Assembly (NCBI GenBank): GCA_963664875.1
Contig: OY761611.1
Span: 1,280,001-1,344,000 of the forward strand
DNA from: Candidatus Kapaibacterium sp.
GTDB lineage: Bacteria > Bacteroidota > Ignavibacteria > Kapaibacteriales > UBA2268
DNA: 64,000 nucleotides
Direction: 5' to 3'
Part shown: positions 43,916 through 64,000 of the stretch, piece by piece
How the letters are laid out: each line of letters opens with the position of its first letter
Position numbering within the stretch: the first letter of the stretch is position 1
Translations under genes and position numbers: made by a program
Notes under the pieces: model-generated
What the model was told of the DNA's origin: nothing
Databases searched by the model: none
Seen by the model: only the letters and a program-made list of their open reading frames with translations

Positions 43916-46108
43916 TTATTCAGCTACTGCTTCAAATAATATGTTCATTAGTTTTTTAGCAGCATCAGGAATAACAGTACCAGGTCCAAAAATTTCGGCA
44001 CAACCTGCATTATAAAGATATTCGTAGTCTTGCTGAGGAATTACCCCACCTGCAATTACAATGATATCATCTCTACCGAGTTTTTTGAGTTCTTCGATGA
44101 GCTGAGGCACTAAAGTTTTGTGACCGGCAGCAAGCGAAGATACGCCTACGATGTGTACGTCGTTTTCTACTGCTTGCTTAGCCGACTCTTCCGGAGTTTG
44201 GAACAAAGGTCCCATATCTACGTCAAAGCCAAGGTCAGCGTAGGCAGTAGCAACTACTTTTGCACCGCGGTCGTGACCGTCTTGTCCCATTTTTGCAATC
44301 ATAATACGAGGACGGCGACCTTCCTGCTCTTCGAATTTGTCAGTCATAGCTCTTACTTCGTCGATAACAGACTGCTCAGCAAATTCGCTTGAGTACACAC
44401 CTGAAATCGAGCGAATTACAGCTTGATGTCTGCCTGTAATTTTTTCGATCGCATAAGATATTTCACCGAGAGAAGCACGAGCCTGAGCAGCTTTCACTGA
44501 AAGGTCAAGCAAGTTACCTTCGCCTGTTTCAGTTGTTTTAGTGATAGCTTCAAGCCAGTAGCGTACATCATCTTCATTACGATTAGCACGCAACTCTTCC
44601 AAACGTTTAATCTGAGATTGGCGAACAGAAGTATTGTCAATTTCAAGAATTTCGAGTGGATCTTCTTTATCAAGGCGATATTTATTGATACCGGTGATGA
44701 TTTCAGTGCCTGAATCAATTCTTGCCTGCTTACGAGCAGCAGCTTCTTCGATACGCATTTTAGGAATACCTGATTCGATAGCTTTTGCCATACCACCAAG
44801 TTCTTCGACTTCCTGAATGTGAGCCCATGCTTTTTTGATTAGCTCGTTTGTAAGAGCTTCTACATAGTAAGAGCCTCCCCAAGGATCGATAACTCGAGTG
44901 ATGCTTGTTTCTTCCTGCAAGTAAATCTGAGTATTACGAGCAATACGAGCAGAGAAATCTGTAGGTAAAGCGATAGCTTCGTCAAGTGCATTTGTGTGCA
45001 ATGACTGAGTGTGTCCCAATGCAGCACCCATAGCTTCGATACAAGTACGGGCAACGTTATTGAACGGATCCTGCTCAGTAAGAGACCAGCCTGAAGTCTG
45101 AGAGTGAGTACGCAATGCAAGAGATTTAGGGTTCTTAGGATTGAACTGATTAACGATTTTAGCCCAAAGAACGCGAGCTGCACGCATTTTTGCAATTTCC
45201 ATGAAGTAATTCATGCCTATTGCCCAGAAGAACGACAAACGAGGCGCAAACGCATCTACGTCGATTCCTGCAGCGATACCGGTTCTCAAATATTCCAAAC
45301 CGTCTGCCAAAGTATAACCCATTTCAAGGTCAGCAGTAGCACCTGCTTCCTGCATGTGGTAGCCGGAAATAGAGATACTGTTAAACTTAGGCATTTTCTG
45401 AGAAGTAAACTCAAAAATGTCAGCAATTATTTTCATAGAGATTTGTGGCGGGTAAATGTAAGTGTTACGCACCATATACTCTTTCAAAATATCATTTTGA
45501 ATAGTACCGGATAAATCTTCCAATTTGGCACCTTGCTCCAAAGCAGAGGAGATATAGAATGCCATGACAGGAAGCACTGCACCATTCATAGTCATAGATA
45601 CAGAAATTTTATCTAAAGGAATGCCATCAAATAAAACTTTAGTATCCATTATAGAATCGATTGCCACACCGGCTTTACCTACGTCACCCACTACTCGAGG
45701 GTGGTCAGAGTCATAGCCACGGTGAGTTGCCAAGTCAAAGGCAACTGAAAGACCTTTTTGACCTGCAGCAAGGTTACGGCGGTAAAATGCGTTAGACTCT
45801 TCGGCAGTAGAGAAACCTGCATACTGGCGAATTGTCCATGGCTGAGCGACATACATAGTCGGATACGGGCCACGCAAATTAGGTGCGATACCTGCAGTAA
45901 AAGGCAAGTGAGGCAATTCTTTAATATCATCTAAGGTATAAATAGGATTTATGTCGATCTGTTCCATAGATTTGGAAATCATCTCTTCATAATTCTTACC
46001 TGTTTCCTTTTCGAATTTTAGCTTCCAATCTTCCCTGCTAATTTCGGGAAAAGCTTGATCGAATTTTATATTAGAAAAATCAGGTGTTTTCATTTTATCA
46101 AACTCCAT
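43916..46108 (-). CDS. scpA: Methylmalonyl-CoA mutase, catalytic (large) subunit
   Basis: [31 protein letters not shown]12-binding GQDGHDRG. Confidence 0.96.
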
Positions 46109-46143
46109 TTCAAAAATTTTCTTTTACAAAAGTCTAACAGAAA

Positions 46144-48288: not shown

Positions 48289-48461
48289 AGCTATTCACTT
48301 GAAGTTTTTAATACAAACAAGGCACACAATCAAGTGTGCCTTACACGTCCTAATAATTTATCCAAATTAAAAAGAAAAACAAAAACCCAAAAAAGTTTTT
48401 TGCCTCTCTTAGTGCTATTTAATCAAAAACTTACGTAAATATCTATCAGTTTTATTATAGT

Positions 48462-49505
48462 TTAAATAATAAGCATTGCATCGCCATAAGCCAGGAATCT
48501 ATATTCGTCTTTCATTGCCTGCTTGTATGCTTTGAAGATAAGCTCTTTTTCGCCGAAAGCAGATGCTACAAGCAACGATGGTGATGCAGGCGGATGGAAA
48601 TTAGTCAAAAATCTTGTAACGATTTTGAAATCGTATTGCGGATAGATAAATTTATCTGTCCAGCCTCTGTTAGGTTTGACAGCACCTGTAGTAAGCACCG
48701 AAGCTTCGAGAGCTCGAACAACCGAAGTGCCGACAGCGTAGATATTTTTCTTATTTTTTAGCGATTTATTGATTGTTTCAGCAGCTTTCATTGATATTTC
48801 GAAATATTCGGAATACATTCTATGTTTAGTAAGGTCTTCTACTTCGATTTTTTCGAATACACCTTGTCCGATATTTAAAATTATCTTTGCGACTTTCACA
48901 CCTTTATCTTCGAGTGCTTTTATCATCTCTTCTGTAAAGTGCAAGCCTGCTGTAGGTGGAGCAATAGAAGCTAACTGATTAGGATTAGCAAAGACACACT
49001 GATAAGTTTCTTTGTCCTTTTCCTCAGGTTCGCGTTTGATATATTCGGGCAAAGGCATCTCCCCTATGCGTTCTATAACTTTGAAAAGATTGCCTTCGTA
49101 GCTGAAACGTACTGTTCTGCCACGGGAAGTAGTATTATCTATTACTTCGCAGTAGAACTTTCCATTATCAAAATAGATTTTATTGCCTATTCTGACTTTT
49201 CTTGCAGGTTCTACAAGGACATCCCAAATTCTTTCGTCGGCTTTCAATTCTCTCAAAAGCATAACTTCGATTTTGGCATTTGTCTTTTCTTTTTTACCAT
49301 AGAGTCTTGCCGGAAATACTTTCGTTTCGTTTAGAACAATACAGTCCCCTTTTTGGAAATAGTCAAGCAAGTCAGAAAACTGCTTGTTTTCCATTTCACC
49401 GGTTTCACGGTTCACCACCATCATTCTAGCAGCATCACGAGGCTCTGCAGGATATTTGGCAACGGCATTTTTAGGGAGTGTGTACTTAAATTCTGAAAGT
49501 TTCAT
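48462..49505 (-). CDS. queA: S-adenosylmethionine:tRNA ribosyltransferase-isomerase
   Basis: NETKVFPARL, MPLPEYIKR, APPTAGLHF, AVGTSVVRALE, TNFH, YGDAMLI. Confidence 0.95.
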   Translation of the reverse strand: MKLSEFKYTLPKNAVAKYPAEPRDAARMMVVNRETGEMENKQFSDLLDYFQKGDCIVLNETKVFPARLYGKKEKTNAKIEVMLLRELKADERIWDVLVEPARKVRIGNKIYFDNGKFYCEVIDNTTSRGRTVRFSYEGNLFKVIERIGEMPLPEYIKREPEEKDKETYQCVFANPNQLASIAPPTAGLHFTEEMIKALEDKGVKVAKIILNIGQGVFEKIEVEDLTKHRMYSEYFEISMKAAETINKSLKNKKNIYAVGTSVVRALEASVLTTGAVKPNRGWTDKFIYPQYDFKIVTRFLTNFHPPASPSLLVASAFGEKELIFKAYKQAMKDEYRFLAYGDAMLII

Positions 49506-49677
49506 TTACTCTGCCCTTTTGTATATATATTTTCGATATTTTTCTTATTCTTTTGGAAAGCCTACTGTGTGGTTTTGATCATTTTGCAGGGTATTCTTTT
49601 TTGATTGTAAAACACTGCAATGCTATAACTCAAAATATTTCAAAACCTCCGACTCCACAAATACTTTTTATAAAGCA

Positions 49678-49713
49678 TAACGAGTCCTCAAGTGAATTTA
49701 GAGAACTCGTTAG
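49678..49713 (-). terminator. Probable hairpin/terminator after htpG
   Basis: taacgagt...actcgtta inverted repeat. Confidence 0.5.
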
Positions 49714-49732
49714 CGTTCTTTATATTTGATTC

Positions 49733-51592
49733 TTATTTAGAAGTAGCTTTTTCCATGAACTCTGTCATTCTCTTTACGAAATCGCTTGGTTTTTGTATGT
49801 ACCCTTCTATCAGCAAAGCACCTTGATATAATTGTTCGACGCTTTCTCTGAGAATTTCGCTTTCTTTATTTTCTCCAAGCAATGTAGCTAAGTTTTTGAT
49901 AAGCCCATGCGAAGTATTAATTTCTAAAATTCGTTTAGAACCTTTGAATTGTTTATCGAGAAGCTGCATCATTTTTTCCATGTGAGCATCCATTCCTGCT
50001 TTGCCGACAACTAAAGTAACAGCAGAATCTACCAACCTTTGAGATTCGACCACATCCTCTACTTCATCGCCGAGCACTTCTTTGAAATACTCGATAATGG
50101 ATTTGGTTTGTGACTCATCTAATTTACTTTCGTCATTGTCATCTCTTTTAATTTCTGCTTTTTCTATTGATACTATCTGCTTGCCGTCATATTCGTTGAT
50201 ATACGGTATGGTAAATATATCAGCAGGATCAGTAAGCAAAAGCACTTCGATGTCATTTTTGCGGAAATATTCCAAATTAGGATTAGTTTCCAATGACTCG
50301 CGAGTGTTGCCTGAAATATAATATATTTTATTATCGTTGGCTTCGCCCATTCTTGCAACATAAGAGTTGAAAGAAGTAAGTTCGCCCGCTTCGGTTTTTG
50401 TAGTTTCAAATCTTAGAAGCTCGACTATTCTGTCTTTATTAGCAAAATCGGCATTTACTCCGGTTTTGAATAAGCTGCCAAAATTGTTATAAAATGTTTC
50501 ATATTTTTCTTTGTCTTTATCAGCCCATTCTTCCAATAGCCCCAGCACTTTGCCGGTTAAAATACTTTTTATTTTAGCCATGACAGGACTGTTTTGAGTA
50601 ACTTCTCGAGATACATTTAGAGGCAAATCCTCAGTATCGACTACACCTTTAAGGAATTCTAGATAATCAGGAAGCAGATTTTTTGCATCATCTTGTATAA
50701 ATACTTTGCTTGAATAAAGATGAATAGATTTGTCCTGAGATGCTCTGAAAACATCAGGAGGTGCTACTTTCGGAACAAAAAGCAATGCTTTGAAATTGAC
50801 GTTGCCTTCGATGTTCAAATGTAAATTGCCTAAAGGCTCCTGATAGTCATTAGATATGAATTTATAAAATTCGTTCAGCTCATCTTCGCTGATGTCGTCT
50901 TTTCGTTTATGCCACAAGGCAGTAACTTTGTTTACTTTCTCTTCGCCTACATACAAAGGGAAATCAACAAAATTAGAATATTTTTGCAAAATGTCTTTTA
51001 TTCTGTAATCGCTTGCAAAATCTTTGTATTCTTCTTTGAATTTGAAGCTTATTTTTGTGCCTCTTGACTCTTTGTCAGACTCCACTATTTCGAAAGTATC
51101 ATGCCCTTCGGAAATCCATTTATATGCCTTGGCACCCTGCTCTGCAAATCTGGTTTCTACAGTAACTTCATCAGTTACCATAAACAATGAATAGAAGCCG
51201 ACCCCAAACTGCCCAATCATATTAGCGTCTAAGCTCTGCTTGCTTTCTTTCATCTGTCTGATAAATTCCATTGTGCCTGAACTTGCGATAGTGCCAAGTC
51301 TGCCTGTCAAATCTTCTTTGGTCATGCCGATGCCGCTATCTTCAATTGTGAACTCTGAAGTATCGGGATTGACACTTATCCTGATAGTAAGCTCAGCATC
51401 CGAATCGACAATGTCAGGGTTTGTTAGTTTCATAAATCTGACTTTATTAAGAGCGTCAGAGGAGTTAGAAACAAGTTCCCTTAAAAATATTTCGGGATTT
51501 GTGTAAAGTGAATGGATAATCAACTGCAGCAATTGCTTCATCTCAGCCTTAAACTCGAACTTTTCTGCTGCCATACTCTTATTCTGTTCCAT
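49733..51592 (-). CDS. htpG: Molecular chaperone HtpG (Hsp90)
   Basis: EIFLRELVSNSSDA, DSGIGM, IGQFGVGFYS, DLPLNVSRE, ILEIN. Confidence 0.97.
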   Translation of the reverse strand: MEQNKSMAAEKFEFKAEMKQLLQLIIHSLYTNPEIFLRELVSNSSDALNKVRFMKLTNPDIVDSDAELTIRISVNPDTSEFTIEDSGIGMTKEDLTGRLGTIASSGTMEFIRQMKESKQSLDANMIGQFGVGFYSLFMVTDEVTVETRFAEQGAKAYKWISEGHDTFEIVESDKESRGTKISFKFKEEYKDFASDYRIKDILQKYSNFVDFPLYVGEEKVNKVTALWHKRKDDISEDELNEFYKFISNDYQEPLGNLHLNIEGNVNFKALLFVPKVAPPDVFRASQDKSIHLYSSKVFIQDDAKNLLPDYLEFLKGVVDTEDLPLNVSREVTQNSPVMAKIKSILTGKVLGLLEEWADKDKEKYETFYNNFGSLFKTGVNADFANKDRIVELLRFETTKTEAGELTSFNSYVARMGEANDNKIYYISGNTRESLETNPNLEYFRKNDIEVLLLTDPADIFTIPYINEYDGKQIVSIEKAEIKRDDNDESKLDESQTKSIIEYFKEVLGDEVEDVVESQRLVDSAVTLVVGKAGMDAHMEKMMQLLDKQFKGSKRILEINTSHGLIKNLATLLGENKESEILRESVEQLYQGALLIEGYIQKPSDFVKRMTEFMEKATSK

Positions 51593-51810
51593 CTCGCTAT
51601 TCCATCCTAAATGTTAAACAAAAACAAGAATTGCCAAAAAATCGACGAAAAAAAATTTCTGCTATTGAAAATTTATTATCTTACAATTTGAGAAAACATA
51701 TTTCGATTTTTATGATAGTATCTTTTTGCTAAATGCGTAATTCGTCAAAGGTACAAAGATAATAAATCGCTCTAATTGTTTGAATTAAAATATTTTATTT
51801 ATAAAGCCAA

Positions 51811-53343
51811 ATGATAGCTTTCCGTACGATTATAGCAGTATTCTGCACAATTTTTTTATTTCTGAATGCAAACGCTCAGGATACTATTCCTATTCAGGAT
51901 TCTGTGAGAAGCCTCCCCACTGTCAAGCTTTCCAAGACAGATGAGCTACGCAATGATATCAACGGACTATTAGAAAATCCCGACTTTGCTAATGCTTCTA
52001 TTGGTGTTTGCATCCAGTCTATTAAAACAGGTGAATATCTATATAAGTTCAATCATACTAAAAATTTTGTTCCTGCTTCTACATTGAAACTATTTACTAC
52101 CGGTGCAGGCTTGGAGTATTTGGGTAGTGATTTCCGATTTTACACGCGTTTGTTTTTGGACGGCTCTATTTCCGGTAATGGTGAATTTTCTGGTAACATA
52201 ATAATACAGGGTACAGGCGATCCGAGCTTATCGGCAGCTTACGATATCGATCCTCAGCTAATATTGGAGTCTTGGGCAGATGTGTTGGATTCCCTGAATA
52301 TTACTTCTATCAAGGGAAATATTCTTGGTGATGCCACATATCTTGATAATACCTACTACGCTCCTGGCTGGGCTTGGGATGATTTGCCAAGCGCTTACTC
52401 TGCTCAAATCAGTGCTCTTTCTTTTAATGATAATGTGATAGATATTACTGTAACACAAGGTGAATCCATTGGCTCGCCTGCTACTATTTCTGTTGCTCCT
52501 GACAATAATTATGTCAGAATTATAAATTACATCACTACGACTGACAACACCACACCCGAAGAAATGGTGGTAATCAAAGAGCCTGGCACTAACATAGTAG
52601 AGCTTTACGGAGCGGTCAATTATGATTCGGTTAGTACTCACACCCTTTCAAGAAGCGTAACGATAGACAATCCGGTATTATTTTTTTTGAATCAGTTTCA
52701 GTTAGCTTTAAAAACTAAGAATATAAGATTTCGGGGTGCCTTGCTGAGCAGTTTGGATTGGAATGACAAACTTGACTATTCATCAATGAAGCTGATTGCA
52801 GAGCATGCTTCACCTCCACTGAGTGAAATAATAAAAATTGTGAACAAAAACAGCTCCAATATCAGTGCTGAGTTGCTTTTGAAAATAGTTGGCAGAGAAT
52901 TTCGCGGGCTTGGAAGCACAAGTGCCGGAATAGATTGCGTGCATGATTTTTTAAAAAAGAAAAGCGTTTCGATAGCGAACAGCAGCATAGTAGATGGATC
53001 GGGACTTTCGCGGCTAAACCTTGTTTCGCCGAGATATTTGGTTAACTATTTGCTTGCAATGTACCGAAGCAAATATAAAGATATTTTTACGGCTTCGCTT
53101 GCAGAGCCAAACAAAGAAGGAACTTTAGCCAATCGTATGAAAATGTCGCTTGCAGAAAAGAAAGTGAAAGCAAAAACCGGTTCAATGAATCATATTTCGA
53201 ACATAGCAGGCTATGTCAGCACCCGGGACGGAGAGGAACTCGCTTTTGCAATAATGATAAACAACTACACAGTCCCACGCAGCTTAGCCGAAAACCTGCA
53301 AGATCTAATTTTGATGCGACTCGCCGGTTTTTCGAGGAAGTAA
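51811..53343 (+). CDS. dacB: D-Ala-D-Ala carboxypeptidase/endopeptidase PBP4 (peptidase S13)
   Basis: PASTLK (SxxK), SSN (SxN), DGSGLSR, AKTGS (KTG). Confidence 0.95.
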   Translation: MIAFRTIIAVFCTIFLFLNANAQDTIPIQDSVRSLPTVKLSKTDELRNDINGLLENPDFANASIGVCIQSIKTGEYLYKFNHTKNFVPASTLKLFTTGAGLEYLGSDFRFYTRLFLDGSISGNGEFSGNIIIQGTGDPSLSAAYDIDPQLILESWADVLDSLNITSIKGNILGDATYLDNTYYAPGWAWDDLPSAYSAQISALSFNDNVIDITVTQGESIGSPATISVAPDNNYVRIINYITTTDNTTPEEMVVIKEPGTNIVELYGAVNYDSVSTHTLSRSVTIDNPVLFFLNQFQLALKTKNIRFRGALLSSLDWNDKLDYSSMKLIAEHASPPLSEIIKIVNKNSSNISAELLLKIVGREFRGLGSTSAGIDCVHDFLKKKSVSIANSSIVDGSGLSRLNLVSPRYLVNYLLAMYRSKYKDIFTASLAEPNKEGTLANRMKMSLAEKKVKAKTGSMNHISNIAGYVSTRDGEELAFAIMINNYTVPRSLAENLQDLILMRLAGFSRK

Positions 53344-53470
53344 ATCTCATCACTGTTGGTTTATACAATTGGTGTTAGTTCGGCAGATTTGCTATGAGTA
53401 TAAGATATATAAATCTCGAAAAAATTTACTCCCATGGTAGTCTATGGTCTATTCCACCTAAAACCCAATT

Positions 53471-55798
53471 CTACCCAACAATGATTTTTTTGCTGATATT
53501 TCTATTTCCAATATATAGATTTAGATAATAAATCCCACTTGTAATGGTTTCGTCAATTTGTAAATCGATTTTAGTTGATGTCACTTTCAGGTTCTCCCAG
53601 CTGTTAACTACTATTCCCAAGTAGTTACACATTGTTATTCTATCCACTGTTTTTATCTTATCAGACAAATCAAGTGTTAATTTACCATTTGCCACAGGCA
53701 CAGGATAAACTCTGATATCTTTTGAAGTATCTTCGAAATAGTTATATTCAGAAACAGAAGTATATTTAGCAATATCATATATTAACAGAGCCGGAGTTAT
53801 TTCTTTCACTGCAAGATATTTATTGTCTGTGGACATATCCGCTACACATATGGAGCCATTGAAATCATCTTGATATGGTATATAATTTTGTAAATCCATT
53901 ATAATGTTATCACTTAGCTTCTCAAGTATTTTAATCTGTCGATTACTACTATTCAAGAGTAAATAATTATTATCTTTTGAAGATAAAACAGAATTATAAT
54001 AATTAGGACTAGGTGTTATAAGTTGATTATTCTGCTTGTCATTTATACTTACCTTATATATATAATCATCATCTGCATAATATAAATATTGATCCGTTAG
54101 ACTATAAGTAAAAGGTAACATATTTATAGACTTGCTCTTTCCACATGAACGTAACTTATATTCGACATCGTCTCCCAATTCATATATATCATAGTACCAT
54201 TCTGATTTGTATTTCATAACTAATAATAATTCTGTATCTGAAATCATTTCTACATAGTTGAATATTTTATTTACATGAAGCAAATGCTCAACATCGTTCT
54301 TAATAGTTATTATTCTGATTGTAGAATCAGAAGCGGCTATGACTAATTTCGTACAATCCTGATTCATTTTAGTATAAGTAATAGATGAGTTGTTTTTGGT
54401 ACTGAATGATTTATAAAGAGTTAAATCATCAGAATTGTATAAATTGACTTTATTTGTGTCTTCTATCACTACAATATACTTATCATCATTGCTAATACTA
54501 ATTTTATCATAAATATTATTGTACTCTAGTTTGTTCCAGTTAAGATAATTGCAAATAGAATCTTTGTCTGTATCATATACAATTATTTGGTTATAATCCC
54601 TATAATCGTCATTATTAGTAATACCAAGAAGAATTTTTTGTGCATTATGATTAAAATATTTTAGAACCTCTATCTCTCCATAAGGTAATGATAAACATCT
54701 GGTTGTTTTGTTTTCTAAATCATATTCTTTAGCAATTATCGGAGTTAAATAAGTCATCTTATTAGCTCCAGTAAAAAAATACTTGAGTGGATTGTAATCT
54801 TCTGTCATTGATAAATCTAGAGAGAATACTTCAGTGGATTGCAAAGTTCCGTCTGTCAGAGAAATGATTCTAATTTTATTATTATCTGTTAGATACATAA
54901 GTTTCTTTTTATCAACACTTATACTAACACTAGTCTCATAATTCATATCGAGTGTCCTGGCTAAAAGCTTCATACTAGATGCATCAAACAATCCTACACC
55001 AATATCTGTACTAAATTCACTTTTTAGAATATTAGAAATTAGAATTCCCTTGTCAAGGTATATTATTTCAGAACTTGTCATTGGAACCACATCATGTGGC
55101 AAGATTTTCTCTTTAAGCAAATGCCCATCGGAATTCCAAAAGCATACTTTGTCAATATATTCTTGCTCTTTGTATCCAGAATGCAAAGAAATAAAGCCAT
55201 TCGTAGTGTTATCAATAGAGTATATTATATCATTCGTATATTCTTTTTTCCACAGTAACTTACCAGTACTAAATGAGTGACAATATATTGTTTTTGAATC
55301 TCTGTCCATATTACTTATTCTAGAAATAGTAATATATTTATCCTGATCTAGAAATTTAATTTGTTTCACACCTTGTTTGAAATCTTCTAAAAGTAATGGG
55401 TCTAAGAAATACTTCCCCTCTAAATCCCATTTTAACAGATAATCATTGCAATTAGAATCCCAAGCAAATATGCATAAGTATTTATTATTCAAGCTAAAAA
55501 AGATTGCATCTATACTGAATTCCAAATCTTTATAATTTAAATCGTATAATAAATAGTCAAATTTATTTTCCTCTAAGTTGTAAATATAAACAGTAGAGTA
55601 TAAACCATTATTTTTAAAAGCAGAGCCTATAAAAGCATATTTGTAATCACTACTGACTCCATAATTATGCGTATAGTAATATTCATATACTCTTTTATCG
55701 GGCTCAAAAATTGGTTTTACAAGTTTCAACTCTTGTGAAAATGATAACAGTGGAAAAAACACTGCCATTAAGATAATATTTGATATTCTGCGAATCAT
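53471..55798 (-). CDS. Secreted WD40-like beta-propeller protein with T9SS type A sorting domain
   Basis: Signal peptide, repeated blades (FSLNNKYL, ISNDDKYI, MSTDNKYL), VYPVP...SGIYYL...KKIIVG; visibly more AT-rich than its flanks. Confidence 0.75.
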   Translation of the reverse strand: MIRRISNIILMAVFFPLLSFSQELKLVKPIFEPDKRVYEYYYTHNYGVSSDYKYAFIGSAFKNNGLYSTVYIYNLEENKFDYLLYDLNYKDLEFSIDAIFFSLNNKYLCIFAWDSNCNDYLLKWDLEGKYFLDPLLLEDFKQGVKQIKFLDQDKYITISRISNMDRDSKTIYCHSFSTGKLLWKKEYTNDIIYSIDNTTNGFISLHSGYKEQEYIDKVCFWNSDGHLLKEKILPHDVVPMTSSEIIYLDKGILISNILKSEFSTDIGVGLFDASSMKLLARTLDMNYETSVSISVDKKKLMYLTDNNKIRIISLTDGTLQSTEVFSLDLSMTEDYNPLKYFFTGANKMTYLTPIIAKEYDLENKTTRCLSLPYGEIEVLKYFNHNAQKILLGITNNDDYRDYNQIIVYDTDKDSICNYLNWNKLEYNNIYDKISISNDDKYIVVIEDTNKVNLYNSDDLTLYKSFSTKNNSSITYTKMNQDCTKLVIAASDSTIRIITIKNDVEHLLHVNKIFNYVEMISDTELLLVMKYKSEWYYDIYELGDDVEYKLRSCGKSKSINMLPFTYSLTDQYLYYADDDYIYKVSINDKQNNQLITPSPNYYNSVLSSKDNNYLLLNSSNRQIKILEKLSDNIIMDLQNYIPYQDDFNGSICVADMSTDNKYLAVKEITPALLIYDIAKYTSVSEYNYFEDTSKDIRVYPVPVANGKLTLDLSDKIKTVDRITMCNYLGIVVNSWENLKVTSTKIDLQIDETITSGIYYLNLYIGNRNISKKIIVG

Positions 55799-55909
55799 TT
55801 AATTATATCCAAAATGTATATACTTTGATATTTTATAGAGTTACTTTATGTACAATACAAATATACTAAAGATTTATACAATCAGGTTAGTTTCTTAATT
55901 TTAAGATAT

Positions 55910-56000
55910 CTCCCTTACTCAAACCCCCTCAACCGCATAATAGTTATGCTCCATCTCAATCTCTTTGAACTTCAAGCCCAGTTTTTTGAATACCACTTTT
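55910..56000 (-). repeat. Inverted copy of the 3' end of the CPBP gene (copy 1)
   Basis: Reverse complement matches 62317..62407 with 7 mismatches in 91 nt; encodes VVFKKLGLKFKEIEMEHNYYAVEGV*. Confidence 0.93.
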
Positions 56001-56179
56001 ACTGTGAGTGTGCCTCAGTTGCTTAAAAAAAATGCAAATTGTATCTCGCGATATATGAAATACCTAATTCAAAAGCCCGCTTTACTTTTTGCAACTTTAT
56101 TTTGTATAATTGTGAGACCTATTTCTTAATTTTGTGTCTCTTTCTTTATATGCTTTTAACAAAATTGATTCGGTGTTTT

Positions 56180-59100
56180 ATGAAATATCTTTTTACTTTT
56201 TTGTTTATGTTTTCTCTTACTCTTACCTACTCCTCTGAAATAGTTATTAATGAGGTGTCTTCCATCAATAGCAGTGCGTGGGTGGACGAAAATTACGAGG
56301 CACCGGACTGGATAGAGCTTAAGAATATCAGCTCGAAAGCTATTAACCTAAATGGATATCGTATCTCAGACAAAGATAACTTTTCTAAAGCTTGGGTACT
56401 GCCGGATACTTCGCTCCTTCCCGGAGAGCTGTTGGTAATTTCTGCTTCAGATGCCGCCACTAATTCATCAGGCAAATATGTTGTAGAAACGGATGGTATT
56501 GGCATTGTGCCGGGAAATGACGAAGATGGCTTTACTTATTATTATATGCCTGTTTCGGGGGACTTTGTTGCCGAGTTTGACTTTTCTTCTATGCGAAATG
56601 TCGGTACATTTGGAGCTGCCGGTATTACTTTCAAAGAAGAACTTACCGAAGAATCAAAATATTTTGGTGTTTACAATCTGAGAGAGGATAGGACTACCTA
56701 TGGCTTGATGAGAAGAACTCAGATAGAAAAGGGAACTGAAGTGGATTACTCTTATCATCATAGCGTCAATCCATGGGGTAGAGTCAGATTAGAACGTAAA
56801 GGCAACACTATTATCGGTTATGATATCGAAAACGGGTTTGAATGGAAAGAATTTGCAAGATTTGAAGCTAATTTCAATAATTCAGGTTACATAGGATTAG
56901 GCTTTTCTTCTGCGAAATACGACCGTGTAGGGAAATTTACATTCTCTTATTTGAAGATAAACGATGAAATGATAAATATTGAAAAGCTTAGTAAAATTGA
57001 TATCAACATCAACAAGCCTTCAAAAATGTATATATCCAATGAAATACATACCAATTTCAAACTATCAAGAAGCGGCGAGACTCTGACTTTATGGGATGTG
57101 GATGGCGAAATAGAGCATCAGCTCGTAGTGCCTGCTCAAAATGTCGATATATCTTACGTCAGAAATGAAAATGGAGAAATGTTACTGTCTTATCCTGCTA
57201 CTCCGGGTTTTGAGAATAATAATTTTTATTCCGGTAGATGCCAATTGCCAACGGCTTCTCCCGATGGTGGCTTTTTCGAGTCAATGGTCGCAGTAACTTT
57301 GGACAAAAACGACGGTGACGTTATTTACTACACTCTTGATGGTAGTGAGCCAACAGAAAATTCAAAAAAATATACCTTGCCTTTTGCAATTGAAAGGACT
57401 GCAGTGCTTAGAGCAAAGACCTTTTCTTCTAAGAATCTACCAAGCAAAACTTTAACTCGAACATTTTTTATTGGGTCTGAGTATTCGCTACCTTGCATAT
57501 CTATAGCAACTGATTCATTAAATTTATGGCACAAAGATACCGGTCTTTTTATAGATAAAAATATTTATTGGGAAAATGACAAACCCGGTCATTTTGAAAT
57601 TTGGTCTCCTGAAGGTAAGCTCGAGATGCATTCTGACGGCACAATGAGATTACACGGACAAAAGTCCAGAACATTTGCTCAGAAGTCTTTGCGGTTTCAT
57701 GCAAATGCAATATCTGACAGTACCGAATATACCCACCCTTTCTTCGGCAATGAGTCCTACGAAAGCTATGAAAAAATTCTATTTAGAAACGGTGGCACCG
57801 GCTGGTGGAGCGCTATACTAACCGACGGATTTGTTGCTACCATTCTAAAAGATATACCTTCTGTGATAGTTGGTAACTATAGAGCCGGAGTTTCATATCT
57901 GAATGGAAAATACTACGGTATTATGAATATACGAGAAAAAGTTGACGAGGACTTGATAGCTCAGAAATATGGAATATCTGCAGAATCCATCAATTTTGTC
58001 GAAGACGAATTTGGTGCCGGAAATGGAGTTGCAACCGACTTTTTTAATGACTACACAGCCATTATGAATATGGACATGACAGAAGAAAATGCCTTCAAAT
58101 TTGTTTCCGAAAACTTTGATCTCGATAATTTATATGACTATTTATCTTCTCAAATTTTTATTTGCAACATCGATTGGCCTTGGAAAAATGTAAAATACTG
58201 GTCAAGTAGCGAGCTTGACAGTAAATGGAGATTCATTCCTCACGACATGGATTATTCTTTTGGGTGCTCTGCTGCCTTTTGGGAATTTGACATTTTTACT
58301 TTGCTGGAAGAAGATAAGATGTTTCCCAATTTTTTCACTAAGCTATGGGAAAACACTCGCTTAAAAGAGGAGTTTATCAACCGACTTTGCGATTTGATGA
58401 ATTCAAAATTCTTAGAAGAAAATACGCGTCCCCTGCTGGATACATTTGCAAAACAAATAGAGCCTTACATCTCTTTACAGCAAACAACTTATTCTGAATC
58501 TGCAAAAGAATGGCATTACTCTATGGATAAAATGAGAGCATTTGCTGAGAGAAGAGCCTACAGATTGAAAGAACACATGACTGCATATTTTAACTGTGGT
58601 GATTCTGCATTGGTAAATGTAAGCGTAAACAACAATGCTGCCGGCTATGTCAGATTGAATTCCCTCATTATTAACTCTTTCCCATGGGATGGATTTTATT
58701 TTCAAGATGTTCCTATTACGATAGAAGCAGTAGCCAATCCGGGAAGTCGGTTTGTGCGGTGGAGCGACCCGCAATACGGTACAAACCCAAAAATTAGCTT
58801 CAAACCATCAGCGGTAAATAATCTTGTTGCCATTTTTGACGATGACTCCGAATCGTTTGATATAGTTATAAATGAGATAATGTATAAAGCCGCCGAGTCT
58901 GAAGATACAGGAGACTGGATTGAGCTTTACAATCCTTCGCCTGAAAGTAAAGACCTTTCGTTTTGGGTATTGAAAGATTCCTCTCCTGACAATGTTTTTA
59001 CATTCCCTCAGGGTACGGTCATTGAAGCGGAATCTTATTTGGTAATCACAAGGAAAGGTAAAGACTTTGAGAAATACCACCCGGATGTTGATTACATTGA

Positions 59101-59581
59101 TGAACTTGGTTTTGGATTGAGTGAAGAAGATGCTGTAAAATTGTATAATCACGCAGATGAATTGATTGATTCTGTTCAATACACCGCCAAAAATCCGTGG
59201 CCTTCAAGCTCGAACGGAACAGGCTTGTCAATAGAACTCAAAAATGCAAAATTAGACAACAGCTTAGGGCAGAACTGGTACGCCTCACTCATAGTCAGAG
59301 GAACTCCGGGAAAGAAAAATTCTGTTGATACTGCTGTACCTTCACCTGAAAAATTACAAATAGAAGTTTTTCCAAACCCAACGAGCTCATATTTATTTAT
59401 CAGAACTGACTACCAAGAATTTGAATATAAGATTGTAGATGCTCTCGGATCAGTCAAATCAGTTGGGAAAGCTAACTATACAGTTGCTTTATCTTGTCTT
59501 GACTTACCAAATGGCAGGTACTTAATTGAAATTTTAATGCAGGATAAAACAGAAACAATTCCGTTTCTAATTGTCAGATAA
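56180..59581 (+). CDS. CotH-kinase-like protein with lamin-tail domains, chitobiase/Fn3-like domain and T9SS sorting domain
   Basis: IVINEV...DWIEL (twice), IYYTLDGSEP, LNGKYYGIMNIRE, NIDWPWKN, WRFIPHDMD, VFPNP...NGRYLI; ATG start 56180 (ORF track 56039). Confidence 0.87.
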   Translation: MKYLFTFLFMFSLTLTYSSEIVINEVSSINSSAWVDENYEAPDWIELKNISSKAINLNGYRISDKDNFSKAWVLPDTSLLPGELLVISASDAATNSSGKYVVETDGIGIVPGNDEDGFTYYYMPVSGDFVAEFDFSSMRNVGTFGAAGITFKEELTEESKYFGVYNLREDRTTYGLMRRTQIEKGTEVDYSYHHSVNPWGRVRLERKGNTIIGYDIENGFEWKEFARFEANFNNSGYIGLGFSSAKYDRVGKFTFSYLKINDEMINIEKLSKIDININKPSKMYISNEIHTNFKLSRSGETLTLWDVDGEIEHQLVVPAQNVDISYVRNENGEMLLSYPATPGFENNNFYSGRCQLPTASPDGGFFESMVAVTLDKNDGDVIYYTLDGSEPTENSKKYTLPFAIERTAVLRAKTFSSKNLPSKTLTRTFFIGSEYSLPCISIATDSLNLWHKDTGLFIDKNIYWENDKPGHFEIWSPEGKLEMHSDGTMRLHGQKSRTFAQKSLRFHANAISDSTEYTHPFFGNESYESYEKILFRNGGTGWWSAILTDGFVATILKDIPSVIVGNYRAGVSYLNGKYYGIMNIREKVDEDLIAQKYGISAESINFVEDEFGAGNGVATDFFNDYTAIMNMDMTEENAFKFVSENFDLDNLYDYLSSQIFICNIDWPWKNVKYWSSSELDSKWRFIPHDMDYSFGCSAAFWEFDIFTLLEEDKMFPNFFTKLWENTRLKEEFINRLCDLMNSKFLEENTRPLLDTFAKQIEPYISLQQTTYSESAKEWHYSMDKMRAFAERRAYRLKEHMTAYFNCGDSALVNVSVNNNAAGYVRLNSLIINSFPWDGFYFQDVPITIEAVANPGSRFVRWSDPQYGTNPKISFKPSAVNNLVAIFDDDSESFDIVINEIMYKAAESEDTGDWIELYNPSPESKDLSFWVLKDSSPDNVFTFPQGTVIEAESYLVITRKGKDFEKYHPDVDYIDELGFGLSEEDAVKLYNHADELIDSVQYTAKNPWPSSSNGTGLSIELKNAKLDNSLGQNWYASLIVRGTPGKKNSVDTAVPSPEKLQIEVFPNPTSSYLFIRTDYQEFEYKIVDALGSVKSVGKANYTVALSCLDLPNGRYLIEILMQDKTETIPFLIVR

Positions 59582-59607
59582 AAACAAAGATATTTGATGC
59601 AGACCCA

Positions 59608-60867
59608 TTAATCCAAAGGGTCTGCATCTTCAAATTTATAGATAATGTCGTTCCTGCGTACTTTATCCGGCACCTTAATTGCAAAAATATTACCTTTTTC
59701 AGCTTTGGCAACTCCACCACTATCCAGATGAATCTCGCTTACAACTGTTTTGATTGTGCCGGTAGTCGGACCTATAATTATAACTTCATCTCCTATATTT
59801 AGCTCGCCTGCCTGCAATAAAAATTCAGCTACTCCCAAATTGCTGAAATAATTTGTGCATTTTCCGAGATGAGCTTTTTTCTTAGTTGCCTGCGAACCGT
59901 AGATTTTACTCCATTCACCCATCTTTCTGCCAAGATAGTAACCATCCCAAAAACCTCTGTTAAATACAGTTTTGAGCTGTTCTTCCTGCTGTTTTATAAA
60001 CTCCGGAGTATAGCTGCCCTCGAGAATTGCATTGAGAGCAGAATTGTAAGCTCTTGTTACTGTATCGACATATTCAGGAGATCTGCCTCTGCCTTCAATT
60101 TTGAGGACTCTTGCTCCTGACAAAAGAATCTTATCCAAAAATCCGATAGTGCATAAATCTTTTGGAGACATTATGTATTCATTGTCAATCTCAAGCTGGT
60201 AGCCGCTTTCCTGTTCGGTAACTGTATAAGCTTTGCGACAAGTCTGCAGGCATGCACCTCTGTTTGCAGAAGCGTTTTGCTCGTGCAGGCTTAAATAACA
60301 TTTCCCTGAAACAGCCATACACAAGGCACCATGCACAAACATTTCAATCTTTACCGGCTTGCCGGATGGCCCGCAGATATTCTCTTCTGCGATTGCTCGG
60401 GTAATTTCTCTAACCTGCTTCAGATTAAGTTCGCGAGCGAGCACAATCACGTCAGCAAAGTTTGCATAAAACTTTACAGCTTCGATGTTGCTCACATTGC
60501 ACTGAGTAGAAAGGTGTAGCTCTACGCCTGCTGCATGAGTAGCATTTATCACAGCCATGTCAGCTGCTATAATAGCCGAAATTCCGCTTTCTTTTGCCAT
60601 AGCAACTACATCTTTCACAGAAGCTACGTTTTTATCATAAATCACTGTATTTACAGTAAGATAAGACTTTACATTGTTGTCGTTGCAAATCTGAGCAATC
60701 TCTTTCAAATCAGTCAACGAGAAGTTGATGCTTGATTTTGCACGCATATTGAGATGCCCTGCACCAAAATAAACCGAGTCCGCCCCTGCATTAATAGCAG
60801 AATGCAGCGCAGCAAAGGAGCCGGCAGGTGCCATAATCTCTATATCTTTTCTATTTATATCCATCAA
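59608..60867 (-). CDS. Peptidase U32 family protein
   Basis: EIMAPAG, GADSVYFG, EMFVHGALCMAVSGKC, NRGACLQTCR, LKIEGR. Confidence 0.93.
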   Translation of the reverse strand: MMDINRKDIEIMAPAGSFAALHSAINAGADSVYFGAGHLNMRAKSSINFSLTDLKEIAQICNDNNVKSYLTVNTVIYDKNVASVKDVVAMAKESGISAIIAADMAVINATHAAGVELHLSTQCNVSNIEAVKFYANFADVIVLARELNLKQVREITRAIAEENICGPSGKPVKIEMFVHGALCMAVSGKCYLSLHEQNASANRGACLQTCRKAYTVTEQESGYQLEIDNEYIMSPKDLCTIGFLDKILLSGARVLKIEGRGRSPEYVDTVTRAYNSALNAILEGSYTPEFIKQQEEQLKTVFNRGFWDGYYLGRKMGEWSKIYGSQATKKKAHLGKCTNYFSNLGVAEFLLQAGELNIGDEVIIIGPTTGTIKTVVSEIHLDSGGVAKAEKGNIFAIKVPDKVRRNDIIYKFEDADPLD

Positions 60868-61081
60868 TATTTACCAAGTATATAAGATAAAATCTTACAA
60901 AAATAATGCTTTTATCCCTTATTTCCTAAGGAGTTGTGAGACTTGACGTGCAATTCTCGGAAATTATAGCTTTAAATATAAAATATTTTTATATATTACA
61001 ATGTATTAAATATGTACTATGATATAATAATTGAAATATTCAGTGTTATTATTGCAATAATATTAAATCTTCGAGGCTAAT

Positions 61082-62398
61082 ATGTCAAATTTCAAAGCTA
61101 TTCAAACAGAATTAATCGAATTTTATAAAGCACCGAAAGAAATTGATCAATCAGATGAAGGTTTCGGTACAAAACTAAACTTTTGGTTCAAGATACTTAC
61201 TATAGACTTTCTTTTCTCTTTTGTGATAACTGTTGTCATGTCAATTGTTTCTGAACTTGGGCTGTTTGACGCAGAAAATCATGAAGTAATGGAAATGATG
61301 AAAAGCATGACTCCTATAGGATTTATGTTTACAGCAGTAATATTGTTGCCATTTATTGAGGAAGTGATATTCCGTTTGCCGCTGAGATACAAATCGAATA
61401 TTATTCTCAGAGGAGTAGAGTGGTTTTCTGTCATCTTTGGTAAAAAGGTAAAAATAGAAGTGAGAAGTGCATTCGAGTCGATTTATGCAAAATACTTTAA
61501 GATACTTTTCTACACATTTGCTATATTCTTTGCACTATTGCATATTATGAATTACCAATTTTCATTGAGCGTGCTATTGCTTTTTCCACTGCTGATTTTG
61601 CCGCAGCTTTTGTTTGGAATGTTTGGTGGCTTTGTTCGATTGAAACTTGGATTTTTTTGGGGAGCCTGTCTGCATTTTGCTCATAATCTGATTTTTCTTT
61701 CCGTGCCTTTGATAATGATGATGAGTGACAAGGAAGGCATTTTCGAAAATGATGATTTCCAAACTTTTCATCATTCAACTGAGAATGTTAGCATACAAAT
61801 TGAAGAAACCGGTATTGGATTTTTCGGGAACAAACATGCCCAATTTTCAGCTGATTCACTTAGTTTCGAGGCCTACGGCATGAATGATATTATTAGTATG
61901 CTTTTGGATGTAAATCAAGAACTTATAAAGTTTGAGGGAGCCCCTTACTCGCAAAATCTTCGTTTGGACTGCAAAGCTAAAGTTCTGAAAGATTCTGTAG
62001 ATATAAACAAGGAATTACTTGCCCTACTTCAATCGCATTATCGTTTCAAAATCAGTCAGAAAACATCAGTGAAAAAAGGTCTGGAATTATATGTTGCGGA
62101 TACAGTCAAATTCACACAAAATACAAAAGCAGAAATCAACGATGATTACAGTACACATGCTTACACTTCTTTCAATAAAATAACTATGAGCAATGTAAAT
62201 ATTAAAGACCTTGCAGAATCTCTAAGCACAAACCTGAATCTACCGGTTAGCTTCAAAGGAAGGAGCAAGCGAAGAATAGACATCAGCTACAAGACCGGAA
62301 GCACTGATGAAATTAAAAAAGTGCTATTCGAAAAACTGGGCTTGAAGTTCAAAGAGATTGAATTGGAGCATAGCTATTATACAGTTGAGGGGGTTTGA
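61082..62398 (+). CDS. CPBP (CAAX/Abi) intramembrane glutamic protease fused to a DUF3738/TIGR03435-like domain
   Basis: PFIEEVIFR, FALLH, HFAHN motifs within TM helices; soluble C-terminus ending LFEKLGLKF. Confidence 0.8.
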   Translation: MSNFKAIQTELIEFYKAPKEIDQSDEGFGTKLNFWFKILTIDFLFSFVITVVMSIVSELGLFDAENHEVMEMMKSMTPIGFMFTAVILLPFIEEVIFRLPLRYKSNIILRGVEWFSVIFGKKVKIEVRSAFESIYAKYFKILFYTFAIFFALLHIMNYQFSLSVLLLFPLLILPQLLFGMFGGFVRLKLGFFWGACLHFAHNLIFLSVPLIMMMSDKEGIFENDDFQTFHHSTENVSIQIEETGIGFFGNKHAQFSADSLSFEAYGMNDIISMLLDVNQELIKFEGAPYSQNLRLDCKAKVLKDSVDINKELLALLQSHYRFKISQKTSVKKGLELYVADTVKFTQNTKAEINDDYSTHAYTSFNKITMSNVNIKDLAESLSTNLNLPVSFKGRSKRRIDISYKTGSTDEIKKVLFEKLGLKFKEIELEHSYYTVEGV

Positions 62399-62407
62399 GT
62401 AAGGGAG
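62317..62407 (+). repeat. 3' end of CPBP gene (repeat copy 2)
   Basis: Shared with 55910..56000 (inverted) and 63400..63474 (direct). Confidence 0.93.
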
Positions 62408-62474
62408 TAAGTTTTTTTAAAATATTAATTTTATTGTCTATAATCATAATCTCGCAACACAAAGGAAACACACT

Positions 62475-63344
62475 ATGCAACTTAACAATAACAATTACTT
62501 ATTTCATTATACAACACTTAATAATTTGGAAAAGATTTTGGAAAATGGACTACGATTTAATTCTATCTGCAAACAGGCAGACTATCATGAGGGAAAATAT
62601 AAGTTTGGGAATGTCACCCGAGGTTATTGGCATGATCCTAAAAAAGATGAAACAGAACAATTAAAGGAAAATTTTAGTATACCATTTGAACAGTTGCAAA
62701 TTATATCATTAATACAGAATGGTATTCCAAAAATAGAAATAGAGGAAGACGACTACGATAATACTTTATCAAATCATTTTGACGATTTGTCAGATTGTCA
62801 AAAGAATCACACAAGGAATATAAAAGACATTATTGATGATATAAACGAACAATTCATATTTGAAAGCAAAGGTTATTATAATAACTATATGTGGGAAAGA
62901 TATGGAGATAAACATAATGGAATCTGTTTAATTCTCGATAAAAAAAAGCTTTTTGATGAGATTCTCAAAAAATATGGATATTTTGCTAAGCACAATAAAG
63001 TAGAATATAAATCAAATGAGATATCAGAACACAACAATGCTACAAACAACGAAAATATTCATCTTTTTCAAAAAGACTTAACATATAGCCATGAAAACGA
63101 ATACCGTATTTTATTACGGAAACAACTAGATGAAAAAAATAGAGATTATATTGGAAAAAACGCCATAGAGGGTGTTATCGTAGGGATACAGCTTGAAAAT
63201 GAAATCAAAATGTATAACAACAGCATTATTAGTGGTAATAGTAAGATAGAGAAATACAATAATTTGAAAAATAAAATCAATTTTTACTGTCTTCAAAGAG
63301 ATAATCCTAGAGGGACTCTGGATCAAGATGTTTTTCCAATTTGA
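62475..63344 (+). CDS. DUF2971-like protein
   Basis: LFHYTT, MWERYGDKHNGICL, KDLTYSHENEYRI motifs; very AT-rich. Confidence 0.72.
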   Translation: MQLNNNNYLFHYTTLNNLEKILENGLRFNSICKQADYHEGKYKFGNVTRGYWHDPKKDETEQLKENFSIPFEQLQIISLIQNGIPKIEIEEDDYDNTLSNHFDDLSDCQKNHTRNIKDIIDDINEQFIFESKGYYNNYMWERYGDKHNGICLILDKKKLFDEILKKYGYFAKHNKVEYKSNEISEHNNATNNENIHLFQKDLTYSHENEYRILLRKQLDEKNRDYIGKNAIEGVIVGIQLENEIKMYNNSIISGNSKIEKYNNLKNKINFYCLQRDNPRGTLDQDVFPI

Positions 63345-63399
63345 AACAGAAAAAAAGATAAAAGAGTTTATATCCCTCCAACACAAAAATATATTGTCT

Positions 63400-63474
63400 A
63401 AAACTGGGCTTGAAGTTTAAAGAGATTGAACTGGAGCATAGCCATTATGCAGTTGAGGGAGTTTGAGTATGGGA
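63400..63474 (+). repeat. Direct copy of the CPBP gene 3' end (copy 3)
   Basis: aaaactgggcttgaagtttaaagagattgaactggagcatagccattatgcagttgagggagtttgagt; encodes KLGLKFKEIELEHSHYAVEGV*. Confidence 0.92.
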
Positions 63475-63573
63475 TAGATCCTAAAATTCGAGACTGTAAA
63501 CCAATCTCTGTCTGTACTATTTTTTATAGAAGAAAATTCTGGTTGTGATTGTTAAAAATCAACTTTAGTTCCG

Positions 63574-63601
63574 GCTGACTCTGAGCATACTGAGTCAGCC
63601 C
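63574..63601. terminator. Hairpin between convergent genes
   Basis: ggctgactc-tgagcatact-gagtcagcc. Confidence 0.55.
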
Positions 63602-63644
63602 AGTTAAAAAAAAACATCCACATTGATACTGATTTATTCACATT

Positions 63645-64000
63645 CTACTCCTTTATAAACTTAATTCTTTTGTTGTTTATTTGAATGTAATATACTCCCA
63701 TTTGATAATTAGATATATCAACAGACCCAGTGAATTCTCCTGATGTTAGTCTATTGCCCAATATGTCAAATATCTCATATTTTTGACTATTACAAATTCC
63801 TGCTATCGTAATAATCTCAGTTGCGGGGTTAGGATAAATAGTTATCTCGCTATTCTGTTCATCATTTTCTGTAACGGAGACTGCAACGCCTGCTCTGGAA
63901 GCGTAAGCAATACTTTTTGATTCAACATATCCTTCGAAAATTGCAAAAAGGAGTTGTTTCGCTTCTTTTATTGGCACATAATTATCGAAAACGATAGCGA
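63645..64000 (-). CDS. C-terminal part of a T9SS type A sorting-domain protein (start outside window)
   Basis: IYPNPATEII...DISNYQMGVYYIQI...KFIKE. Confidence 0.85.
   Translation of the reverse strand, partial: AIVFDNYVPIKEAKQLLFAIFEGYVESKSIAYASRAGVAVSVTENDEQNSEITIYPNPATEIITIAGICNSQKYEIFDILGNRLTSGEFTGSVDISNYQMGVYYIQINNKRIKFIKE

Follow-up and report, generated by a model that had tools for sequence, protein, structure and literature searches.

Three copies of one gene end in the window

We analysed a 64,000-nt stretch of DNA from Candidatus Kapaibacterium sp. (contig OY761611.1, positions 1,280,001 to 1,344,000; hereafter the window), in which the 3' end of one gene, the host gene, occurs three times and an AT-rich DUF2971 gene lies between two of the copies. 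The window is part of a single-contig genome of 3.83 Mb (G000, contig C1; guanine-cytosine (GC) content 0.36). It was compared with four sister-species genomes of the same genus (G001-G004, which with G000 make five species) and with contigs of related strains from public sequencing runs (X1-X4; 7 of 23 runs were covered), and all Pfam families were scanned in 17 open reading frames (ORFs) between 33 and 64 kb of the window. The features at the locus are as follows (aa, amino acids).

61082-62398, plus strand: host gene, intact, 438 aa, with a membrane N-terminal half and a DUF3738-like C-terminal part
62317-62407, plus strand: copy 2, the gene end in use and 9 nt past the stop codon; 62332-62406 is shared with copy 3
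62332-63399, plus strand: insert unit of 1,068 bp (one repeat and 993 bp of new DNA), absent in X1
62475-63344, plus strand: cargo gene of the insert, DUF2971 protein of 289 aa (PF11185), GC 0.28
63400-63488, plus strand: copy 3, the displaced gene end (75 nt) and 14 nt of old spacer; the matching sequence in the empty-site strain is the end of the intact gene
55897-56000, minus strand: copy 1, a decayed orphan gene end joined to the leader of a WD40 gene, with the same left junction in X1 and X2

The initial annotation called the host gene a CPBP protease gene, which is a likely label, because the CAAX-protease (Rce1-like) match is weak (E 0.007) and under the cut-off. Each of the four sister species has one orthologue (64-71% identity), and outside the genus only 2 of the 36 relatives searched gave matches, both weak, so that the gene-order comparison is confined to G001-G004. 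Gene content behind the host gene varies among these species. The slot holds a WD40 gene with a type IX secretion system (T9SS) tail in G002 and G004, a gene for an HD-CE/HATPase protein of 1,139 aa in G001 (stretch L027:8877-12296), and an AT-rich frame in three pieces in G003 (stretch L029:9928-12116), whose own host gene carries a frameshift.

Over 91 nt, copy 1 (55910-56000, minus strand) shows 92% complementarity to copy 2 (62317-62407), copies 2 and 3 are direct repeats of 75 nt with 92% identity (62332-62406 and 63400-63474), and copies 1 and 3 can be aligned over 89 nt (55897-55985 and 63400-63488), including shared bases past the stop codon. A BLAST search with the repeat found these three local copies (E-values from 1e-25 to 1e-32) and no fourth copy in the 3.83-Mb genome, and the gene end is single-copy in each of G001-G004. 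The coordinates, orientation, translations and peptide ends of the copies are thus as first described, and so is the downstream sequence common to copies 1 and 3, which lies behind the stop codon within the 89-nt match. A common end of about 91 nt holds for copies 1 and 2, whereas copy 3 matches 75 of the 91 nt; the changes described as conservative comprise 5 amino-acid-changing and 2 silent ones between copies 1 and 2. One single-base insertion is common to all three copies and leaves the protein one residue shorter than those of the sister species, which indicates that the copies arose inside this lineage.

An assembly artefact is hardly credible as the source of the copies. Its one foothold is the right junction of copy 2, which short-read contigs bridge by just 11 nt; against it, the copies differ pairwise at 6-7 bases, contigs without a single difference span copy 3 and both junctions of copy 1, and independent strains show the junctions of copy 1, which in one related strain lies with both flanks on one contig.

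The DUF2971 gene is a variable single-gene insert

Copy 2 precedes an AT-rich DUF2971 gene, as had been reported from the sequence: the cargo matches PF11185 with 41 bits against a cut-off of 22, and its GC content is 0.28 against 0.36 for the genome. It also matches PADLOC PDC-S31 (E 4e-13), and at the level of this family match it is a candidate anti-phage gene of an ADP-ribosyltransferase-like family. DUF2971 is described as ADP-ribosyltransferase-like in the excerpts that we considered, and Aristaios, a DUF2971 gene of lactococcal plasmids, is according to the excerpted part of PMC11381338 a tested anti-phage member of the family. Like Aristaios, the cargo is a single gene of the same Pfam family and of similar length (289 versus 316 aa); unlike Aristaios, it is matched at the family level only and is known from its sequence. 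Searches with this query did not find the cargo in any of G001-G004, the nearest other representatives match with an E-value of 4e-11 and about 30-40% identity, and a word-based homologue search returned the cargo itself alone among 1,457 candidates.

The 993 bp of new DNA hold one ORF, the DUF2971 gene, with no terminal inverted repeat and no mobile-element gene. A contig of X1, a strain about 93-97% identical to the window at this locus, joins position 62331 directly to 63400 and continues through the downstream flank and an adjoining end of an insertion sequence (IS); X1 therefore lacks the 1,068-bp unit, and its gene ends with the sequence found at copy 3. A contig of X4 exits the repeat straight into the copy 3 flank, consistent with an empty site. 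The cargo gene has no cover in X1, X3 and X4 and a 36-nt scrap of cover in X2; missing cover was counted as absence only where a contig joins across, and joints other than 62331-63400 were disregarded because they have short sides or lie inside the conserved U32 peptidase gene. These observations support the view that the DUF2971 gene is a variable single-gene insert that left the host gene whole, which agrees with the initial description of a cassette that regenerates its host gene.

The unit could instead be old, a tandem duplication with later replacement or decay, which the 'empty' strain then lost when the repeats recombined. Flanking repeats commonly lead to deletion, at least in the part of PMC2884548 that treats it, and strain sampling is shallow here. 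X1, however, lacks all three changes private to copy 3, no sister species (G001-G004) has a second copy or the cargo, and upstream of copy 3 there is no trace of a full-length paralogue. We regard an old unit as very unlikely.

The gene end does not behave as an attachment site

The initial annotation proposed that the gene end acts as an att-like site or as a homology arm. As it stated, the window lacks an integrase or transposase, insofar as tyrosine integrases and IS256 transposases are concerned. The genome encodes 8 tyrosine recombinases, and the nearest of them (window positions 65575-66819) starts 1.6 kb past the window, 2 kb from copy 3; this gene, however, lies inside a 50-kb island with the tmRNA gene on one side and a 22-bp repeat of that gene's end on the other, and with its own pair of att sites it was rejected as the mover. 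The island (G000:C1:1345390-1396123, from 1.4 kb past the window) also carries type I restriction-modification genes, RtcB, a CRISPR-Cas locus and ISAs1 copies (the Cas and ISAs1 labels derive in part from ORF starts).

If a site-specific recombinase acted in trans on the gene end, all three copies would be cassette junctions. Integration into gene 3' ends with restoration of the gene is well known, and the 8 recombinases, one of them close by, would suit this reading. The left ends of the repeat, however, differ by 15 nt (62317 versus 62332), and across the eight comparable loci of the genome (see below) the repeats range from 48 to 155 bp and share no 6- or 8-mer beyond A/T runs. In addition, the WD40 gene next to copy 1 is a resident neighbour. 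Because lengths vary, no core is shared and the nearest integrase serves the tmRNA island, we conclude that the gene end is not an att site; with neither a fixed crossover nor a motif nor a linked recombinase, this half of the proposal is highly improbable.

Two further element types were considered and rejected. In an integron cassette array, one recombination site (attC) would recur between cassettes, whereas the end duplicated at each locus here is that of the local gene and the junctions have no motif in common; this comparison did not include an attC model. For an IS with a long and variable target duplication (of which the IS1634/IS1549 type is reportedly an example), terminal inverted repeats score at best 6-7 in the terminal 60 nt of all eight inserts, and no transposase family is found among the inserts' ORFs of at least 94 aa.

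Duplicated gene ends recur in the genome and in sister species

The same layout had been suspected to be general in this lineage, and the genome bears this out. Low-copy repeats of 35-220 nt that lie 300-3,000 bp apart are direct in 25 cases and inverted in none, while those more than 20 kb apart are direct in 13 and inverted in 18. A screen of 2,474 mechanically called ORFs for direct orphan ends within 10 kb gave 13 genes with an orphan downstream and 8 with one upstream; removal by eye of tandem-paralogue arrays (6 and 7 genes) left 7 and 1, and nrdJ, added from the repeat survey, brought the loci with the order gene, insert, orphan end to eight. These include enolase, an acyl-CoA ligase, a hydrogenase-type subunit, nrdJ, a T9SS-tail gene and the protease-like host gene. 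Their repeats measure 48-155 bp and their units 0.6-3.0 kb, and the units have a GC content of 0.29-0.36 versus 0.35-0.44 for the host genes. The sole upstream case is a copy of the 3' end of a TonB-dependent receptor gene, 78-86% identical and 2.4 kb upstream (G000:C1:3135193-3137376).

Sister species carry orphan ends of their own at some of these genes: at enolase in one of four (G004, 144 bp), at the hydrogenase-type gene in two of four (G003, 197 bp, and G002, where the event is the one seen here), and at a further gene in all four (60-197 bp). No orphan was found at the acyl-CoA ligase gene in three sister species (the G003 stretch missed the gene) or at nrdJ in four. The sister species' own orphans at the same genes differ in length from those found here.

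What counts as the enolase 'insert' here is an ordinary, orphan-free neighbourhood in G002. At the hydrogenase-type locus, identity to three sister species reaches 90-93%, compared with 83-85% for the next operon. Together, these comparisons indicate that DNA moves between these lineages. The hydrogenase-type operon (L068:4586-11001; G000:C1:940585-947000) has a four-ORF insert in which two ORFs encode NTF2-fold immunity proteins. Identity to G002 is 90% for operon and insert, compared to 83% for the neighbouring operon, which suggests, as far as sequence identity can tell, that they were transferred between species.

A mirror form of the duplication lies in the window itself, in the region (38.9-43.4 kb) for which the same logic had been claimed.

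38872-39397, minus strand: intact side of a 526-bp repeat, comprising the end of an FG-GAP gene, the spacer and the first 70 codons of a glycosyltransferase gene
41175-41700, minus strand: orphan side, a truncated 5' copy of the glycosyltransferase gene whose codons 61-70 are G002/G003-like

The 526-bp repeat leaves an orphan 5' piece of the glycosyltransferase (GT2) gene and a second FG-GAP gene. In codons 61-70, the orphan has residues like those of G002 and G003 and unlike those of the adjacent intact gene; the locus is single-copy in G004, and G001-G003 are without the FG-GAP/TetR block. A screen for 5' ends is dominated by paralogue and Rhs arrays and gave three clear single-gene cases (GT2, aspartokinase and a 330-aa gene), which stand outside the statistics.

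At four places, orphan core fragments of the Rhs type form arrays and are followed by AT-rich genes (G000:C1:2076000-2092000, 3209000-3215000, 3442000-3456000 and 3789000-3803000). Labelled from their sequence motifs, they presumably represent the classic orphan toxin-immunity layout.

Two alleles appear to meet at the duplicated ends

We consider it probable that copies 2 and 3 arose by one-sided recombination of related-strain DNA in the host gene, and that copy 1 is an old junction likely stranded by an inversion. The donor molecule would have had the DUF2971 gene behind its copy of the host gene, and RecA-type pairing within the host gene would have served as the anchor. The far end would have undergone an illegitimate join within the paired stretch, about 75 bp short of where the shared sequence stops; the gene would thereby have been completed by the incoming end, and the resident end displaced downstream. 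Presumably only joins that keep a whole gene survive, which would account for the position of orphan 3' ends downstream and of orphan 5' ends upstream. The direct repeats could later delete the unit or spread it through ordinary recombination.

If both copies of a pair came from one molecule, the orphan should gather replacement changes freely. Across the eight pairs, differences occur at 21 of 119 silent and 9 of 442 replacement sites, so that 21 of the 30 changes are silent. Under a generous null model of duplication followed by decay of the orphan, in which the gene copy keeps silent changes only and the orphan keeps all, P ranges from 1e-4 to 0.006, depending on transition bias. This silent-site bias, the foreign glycosyltransferase allele and the enolase and hydrogenase-type loci together point to two alleles meeting, with the donor anchored on one side. 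The suggestion of a homology arm that brings in related-strain DNA fits the silent-site bias, and divergence from X1-X4 is 6.4-7.5% in the last 500 bp of the host gene and about 3.3% in CotH, which fits a donor tract.

The same anatomy and the variable repeat lengths would also result if foreign DNA were captured between breaks about 75 bp apart on sister chromosomes, in which case both copies would be the recipient's own and identical at birth; this break-based idea underlies the published 'insertion with long target duplication'. The two of eight pairs without a coding difference, a derived base that links copies 2 and 3, and the type I restriction genes 3-13 kb past the window are in keeping with such staggered breaks. 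The pooled differences, however, are too silent for orphan decay, the glycosyltransferase orphan carries another allele, and some 'inserts' are native neighbours in sister species; capture at staggered breaks is accordingly an improbable explanation. We favour the donor-anchored route over cutting alone on the strength of these sequence comparisons.

Alternatively, a small donor circle comprising the gene end and the downstream gene may have integrated by a single crossover in the 75-bp homology. The final structure would be the same, the differences would be allele-like, and the unit of about 1 kb is of a suitable size. The first difference, however, lies 18 nt into the repeat, where X1 is identical to copy 3, so that the crossover would have had to fall in a very short stretch, and homologies of 48-75 bp at 92% identity are poor recombination substrates. 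No circle-type joint was listed in the 7 runs, though contigs drop rare forms. We therefore rate a circle as distinctly improbable.

Several points weigh against the donor-anchored route. The empty site is a single 390-nt contig with a depth of 5.4 and 73 nt on its short side, the eight loci were chosen partly by eye, and two of the eight pairs have no coding differences. When the T9SS-tail locus is left out, 13 of 20 changes are silent and P rises to 0.006-0.06. At this locus taken alone, the sign of a donor is ambiguous: at the six differences between copies 2 and 3, X1 sides with each copy at three; among derived bases, one links copy 3 with X1 and one links copies 2 and 3. The divergence is patchy, at 4.5% over 60049-62103. 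Metagenome and homologue searches turned up no donor in which this DUF2971 gene lies behind the host gene: a pattern scan of metagenomes with the shared gene-end motif gave 0 matches, and a scan with the four-species alignment gave one among 473 candidates, an N-terminal paralogue at 28%, which was not used. One-sided recombination is several orders of magnitude rarer than ordinary recombination, as stated in the excerpted part of PMC5361080. Finally, ComEC and DprA are present here and were also matched in 10 and 11 of 14 control genomes, so that competence is not established.

Relation to known systems

The structure of copies 2 and 3 and the DUF2971 insert, compared by sequence, appears to be an 'insertion with long target duplication' with non-restriction cargo, and the pattern is thus not as new as the initial annotation implied. 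The term was reportedly preceded by work of Nobusato et al. in 2000. In the excerpts of Furuta, Abe and Kobayashi (2010; PMC2853133) considered here, such insertions have a repeat of more than 30 bp, an insert of less than 20 kb, an empty site and no mobile genes. The present case resembles them in its 75-bp repeat of 92% identity, its 993-bp insert and the empty site in a relative, in the variable repeat length, the absence of mobile-element genes and the AT-rich cargo, and in a repeat that spans the stop codon and leaves the gene whole. As for the uniqueness of the repeat, the third local copy (copy 1) is accounted for separately, and none occurs elsewhere in the genome. Most hosts of the published insertions are naturally competent according to the same excerpts.

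Three differences from the cases in those parts of PMC2853133 stand out. The cargo is a DUF2971 gene, without restriction (R) and modification (M) genes, so that the insert is not of the restriction-modification (RM) subtype while sharing its insertion mode; at least eight loci occur in one genome, with the same genes reused in sister species; and the differences between the copies are allele-like, which suggests that a donor was involved and not just cutting. The literature considered yielded no direct description of a donor-anchored target duplication closer than the cited papers, though the supplements of PMC2853133 may hold non-RM or silent-site examples, and it yielded nothing closer on this lineage. 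In three species, 10-18% of the small variable segments have flanking repeats, which are mostly shorter than 30 bp.

The proposed route also resembles homology-facilitated illegitimate recombination and the orphan modules of Rhs and type VI secretion system (T6SS) effectors and immunity proteins, which, in the excerpts of PMC5361080, combine one homologous anchor and one illegitimate join and leave the resident end orphaned downstream. In the present case the proposed anchors are ordinary genes (enolase, nrdJ, an acyl-CoA ligase and the protease-like gene). In the laboratory work of de Vries and Wackernagel in 2002 and of Prudhomme et al. in 2002, homology-facilitated illegitimate recombination is said mostly to delete recipient DNA, not to duplicate it.

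Although this kind of event is already published, the locus is a well-controlled case of gene gain without integrase or transposase, with filled and empty sites and a candidate defence cargo, and it stands among eight loci in one complete genome, some of whose genes were hit again, independently, in sister species. A point left open in the 2010 work, the origin of the long duplication, is addressed by the silent-site bias and by the foreign allele at 41.2 kb. It is likely that integrase-free gene gain here runs on ordinary recombination, and orphan gene ends may serve as a cheap marker for recent accessory genes.

Copy 1 marks an old gene junction

Copy 1 faces the other way and leads into a WD40-T9SS gene, whose domain labels were confirmed. 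The features that bear on its history are as follows.

53471-55798, minus strand: WD40 beta-propeller protein with a T9SS tail, 775 aa; lies behind the host gene in G002 (43%) and G004 (37%)
56001-62316: segment between the inverted copies, with a CotH-T9SS gene, a U32 peptidase gene and the host gene body, as seen from gene order
63490-63567, plus strand: IS256-family end remnant (start 63490 or 63495), 82-86% identical to IS256 ends in G001-G004

In two of the four sister species (G002 and G004), the intact host gene is immediately followed by a WD40-T9SS orthologue and then by dnaE, and the spacer behind copy 1 aligns with the spacers of both up to the start codon. This gene order and the homologous spacer indicate that copy 1 and the WD40 gene form an old gene junction, and copy 1 is therefore not the head of a second captured cassette, as had been suggested. 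AT-richness alone does not prove the WD40 gene a new arrival, since its copies in the relatives have a GC content of 0.29-0.30. Copy 1 looks decayed and is shared by X1 and X2, which implies that it is older than the DUF2971 insertion.

Turning round 56001-62316 (6.3 kb) restores the order of host gene and WD40 gene seen in sister species, and to judge from this gene order copy 1 was likely stranded by a local inversion. The match of copies 1 and 3 stops where the IS256 end remnant begins; the remnant, recognisable by comparison with intact elements of the sister species, is also present in X1 and X4, and no IS256 transposase is left in the genome. On the side of the far breakpoint of the inversion, CotH and dacB have other neighbours in all four sister species.

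Three histories of copy 1 can be envisaged. An earlier insertion of the same kind, followed by the inversion, is a substantial possibility, though short of an even chance. That the inversion itself duplicated about 104 bp at its breakpoint is also possible, a little more tentatively. An inversion driven by IS256 and later patched from a strain of the old order is rather unlikely. The second history resembles the inversion-associated duplication of H. pylori that PMC4671568 mentions, in which a short stretch reportedly has an inverted copy at the border of a segment that relatives carry in another orientation. The case here differs in its size (about 104 bp, 6.3 kb) and in the IS256 end at one junction, and a two-step history fits equally. 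DNA duplication associated with inversion in Helicobacter pylori was reportedly described by Furuta et al. in 2011.

In X3, one contig connects the host-gene body directly with the WD40 leader; the repeat of X4 appears as a single collapsed 89-nt unit with two exits. One may ask whether copies 1 and 2/3, lying in opposite orientation, continue to exchange sequence and to turn round the 6.3-kb CotH-U32-protease segment, and whether one-sided recombination is the genus's routine engine of gene gain and of gene-order shuffling. If so, each flip would change which gene is read after the protease gene, the one for a secreted WD40 protein or the candidate anti-phage gene. The X3 and X4 patterns can also be explained as assembly effects of near-identical copies, low depth and a short-read graph, and we hold this wider proposal to be improbable.

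Further variation around the locus

Within 53540-54032, X1 aligns only with the C-terminal part of the WD40-T9SS gene, and the first 241 nt of its contig do not align; the gene may be a mosaic between strains, or the X1 contig may represent a paralogue. To the right of the IS remnant (63645-64000), a T9SS-tail gene is replaced from 63660 onward in X1, X3 and X4, which makes this a variable slot. A second IS256 end remnant (L069; G000:C1:1451373-1451601) lies directly next to a 150-bp orphan copy (91%) of the 5' end of the aspartokinase gene; of the three longer IS256 remnants in the genome, two thus adjoin a duplicated gene end and the third does not. Compared with G001-G004, the gene order of 45000-64000 differs almost gene by gene, with proteins 63-90% identical, and dacB, CotH, U32 and dnaE have different neighbours across the five species.

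Elsewhere in the window, 33076-37800 encodes a 1,574-aa chemoreceptor that includes 11 HAMP_2 stretches, and the gene has near-identical internal repeats of 546 bp. Two tandem tRNA-Ser genes lie at 2307-2533, and the genome is rich in tandem arrays of identical tRNA genes, including five for Asp and five for Thr.

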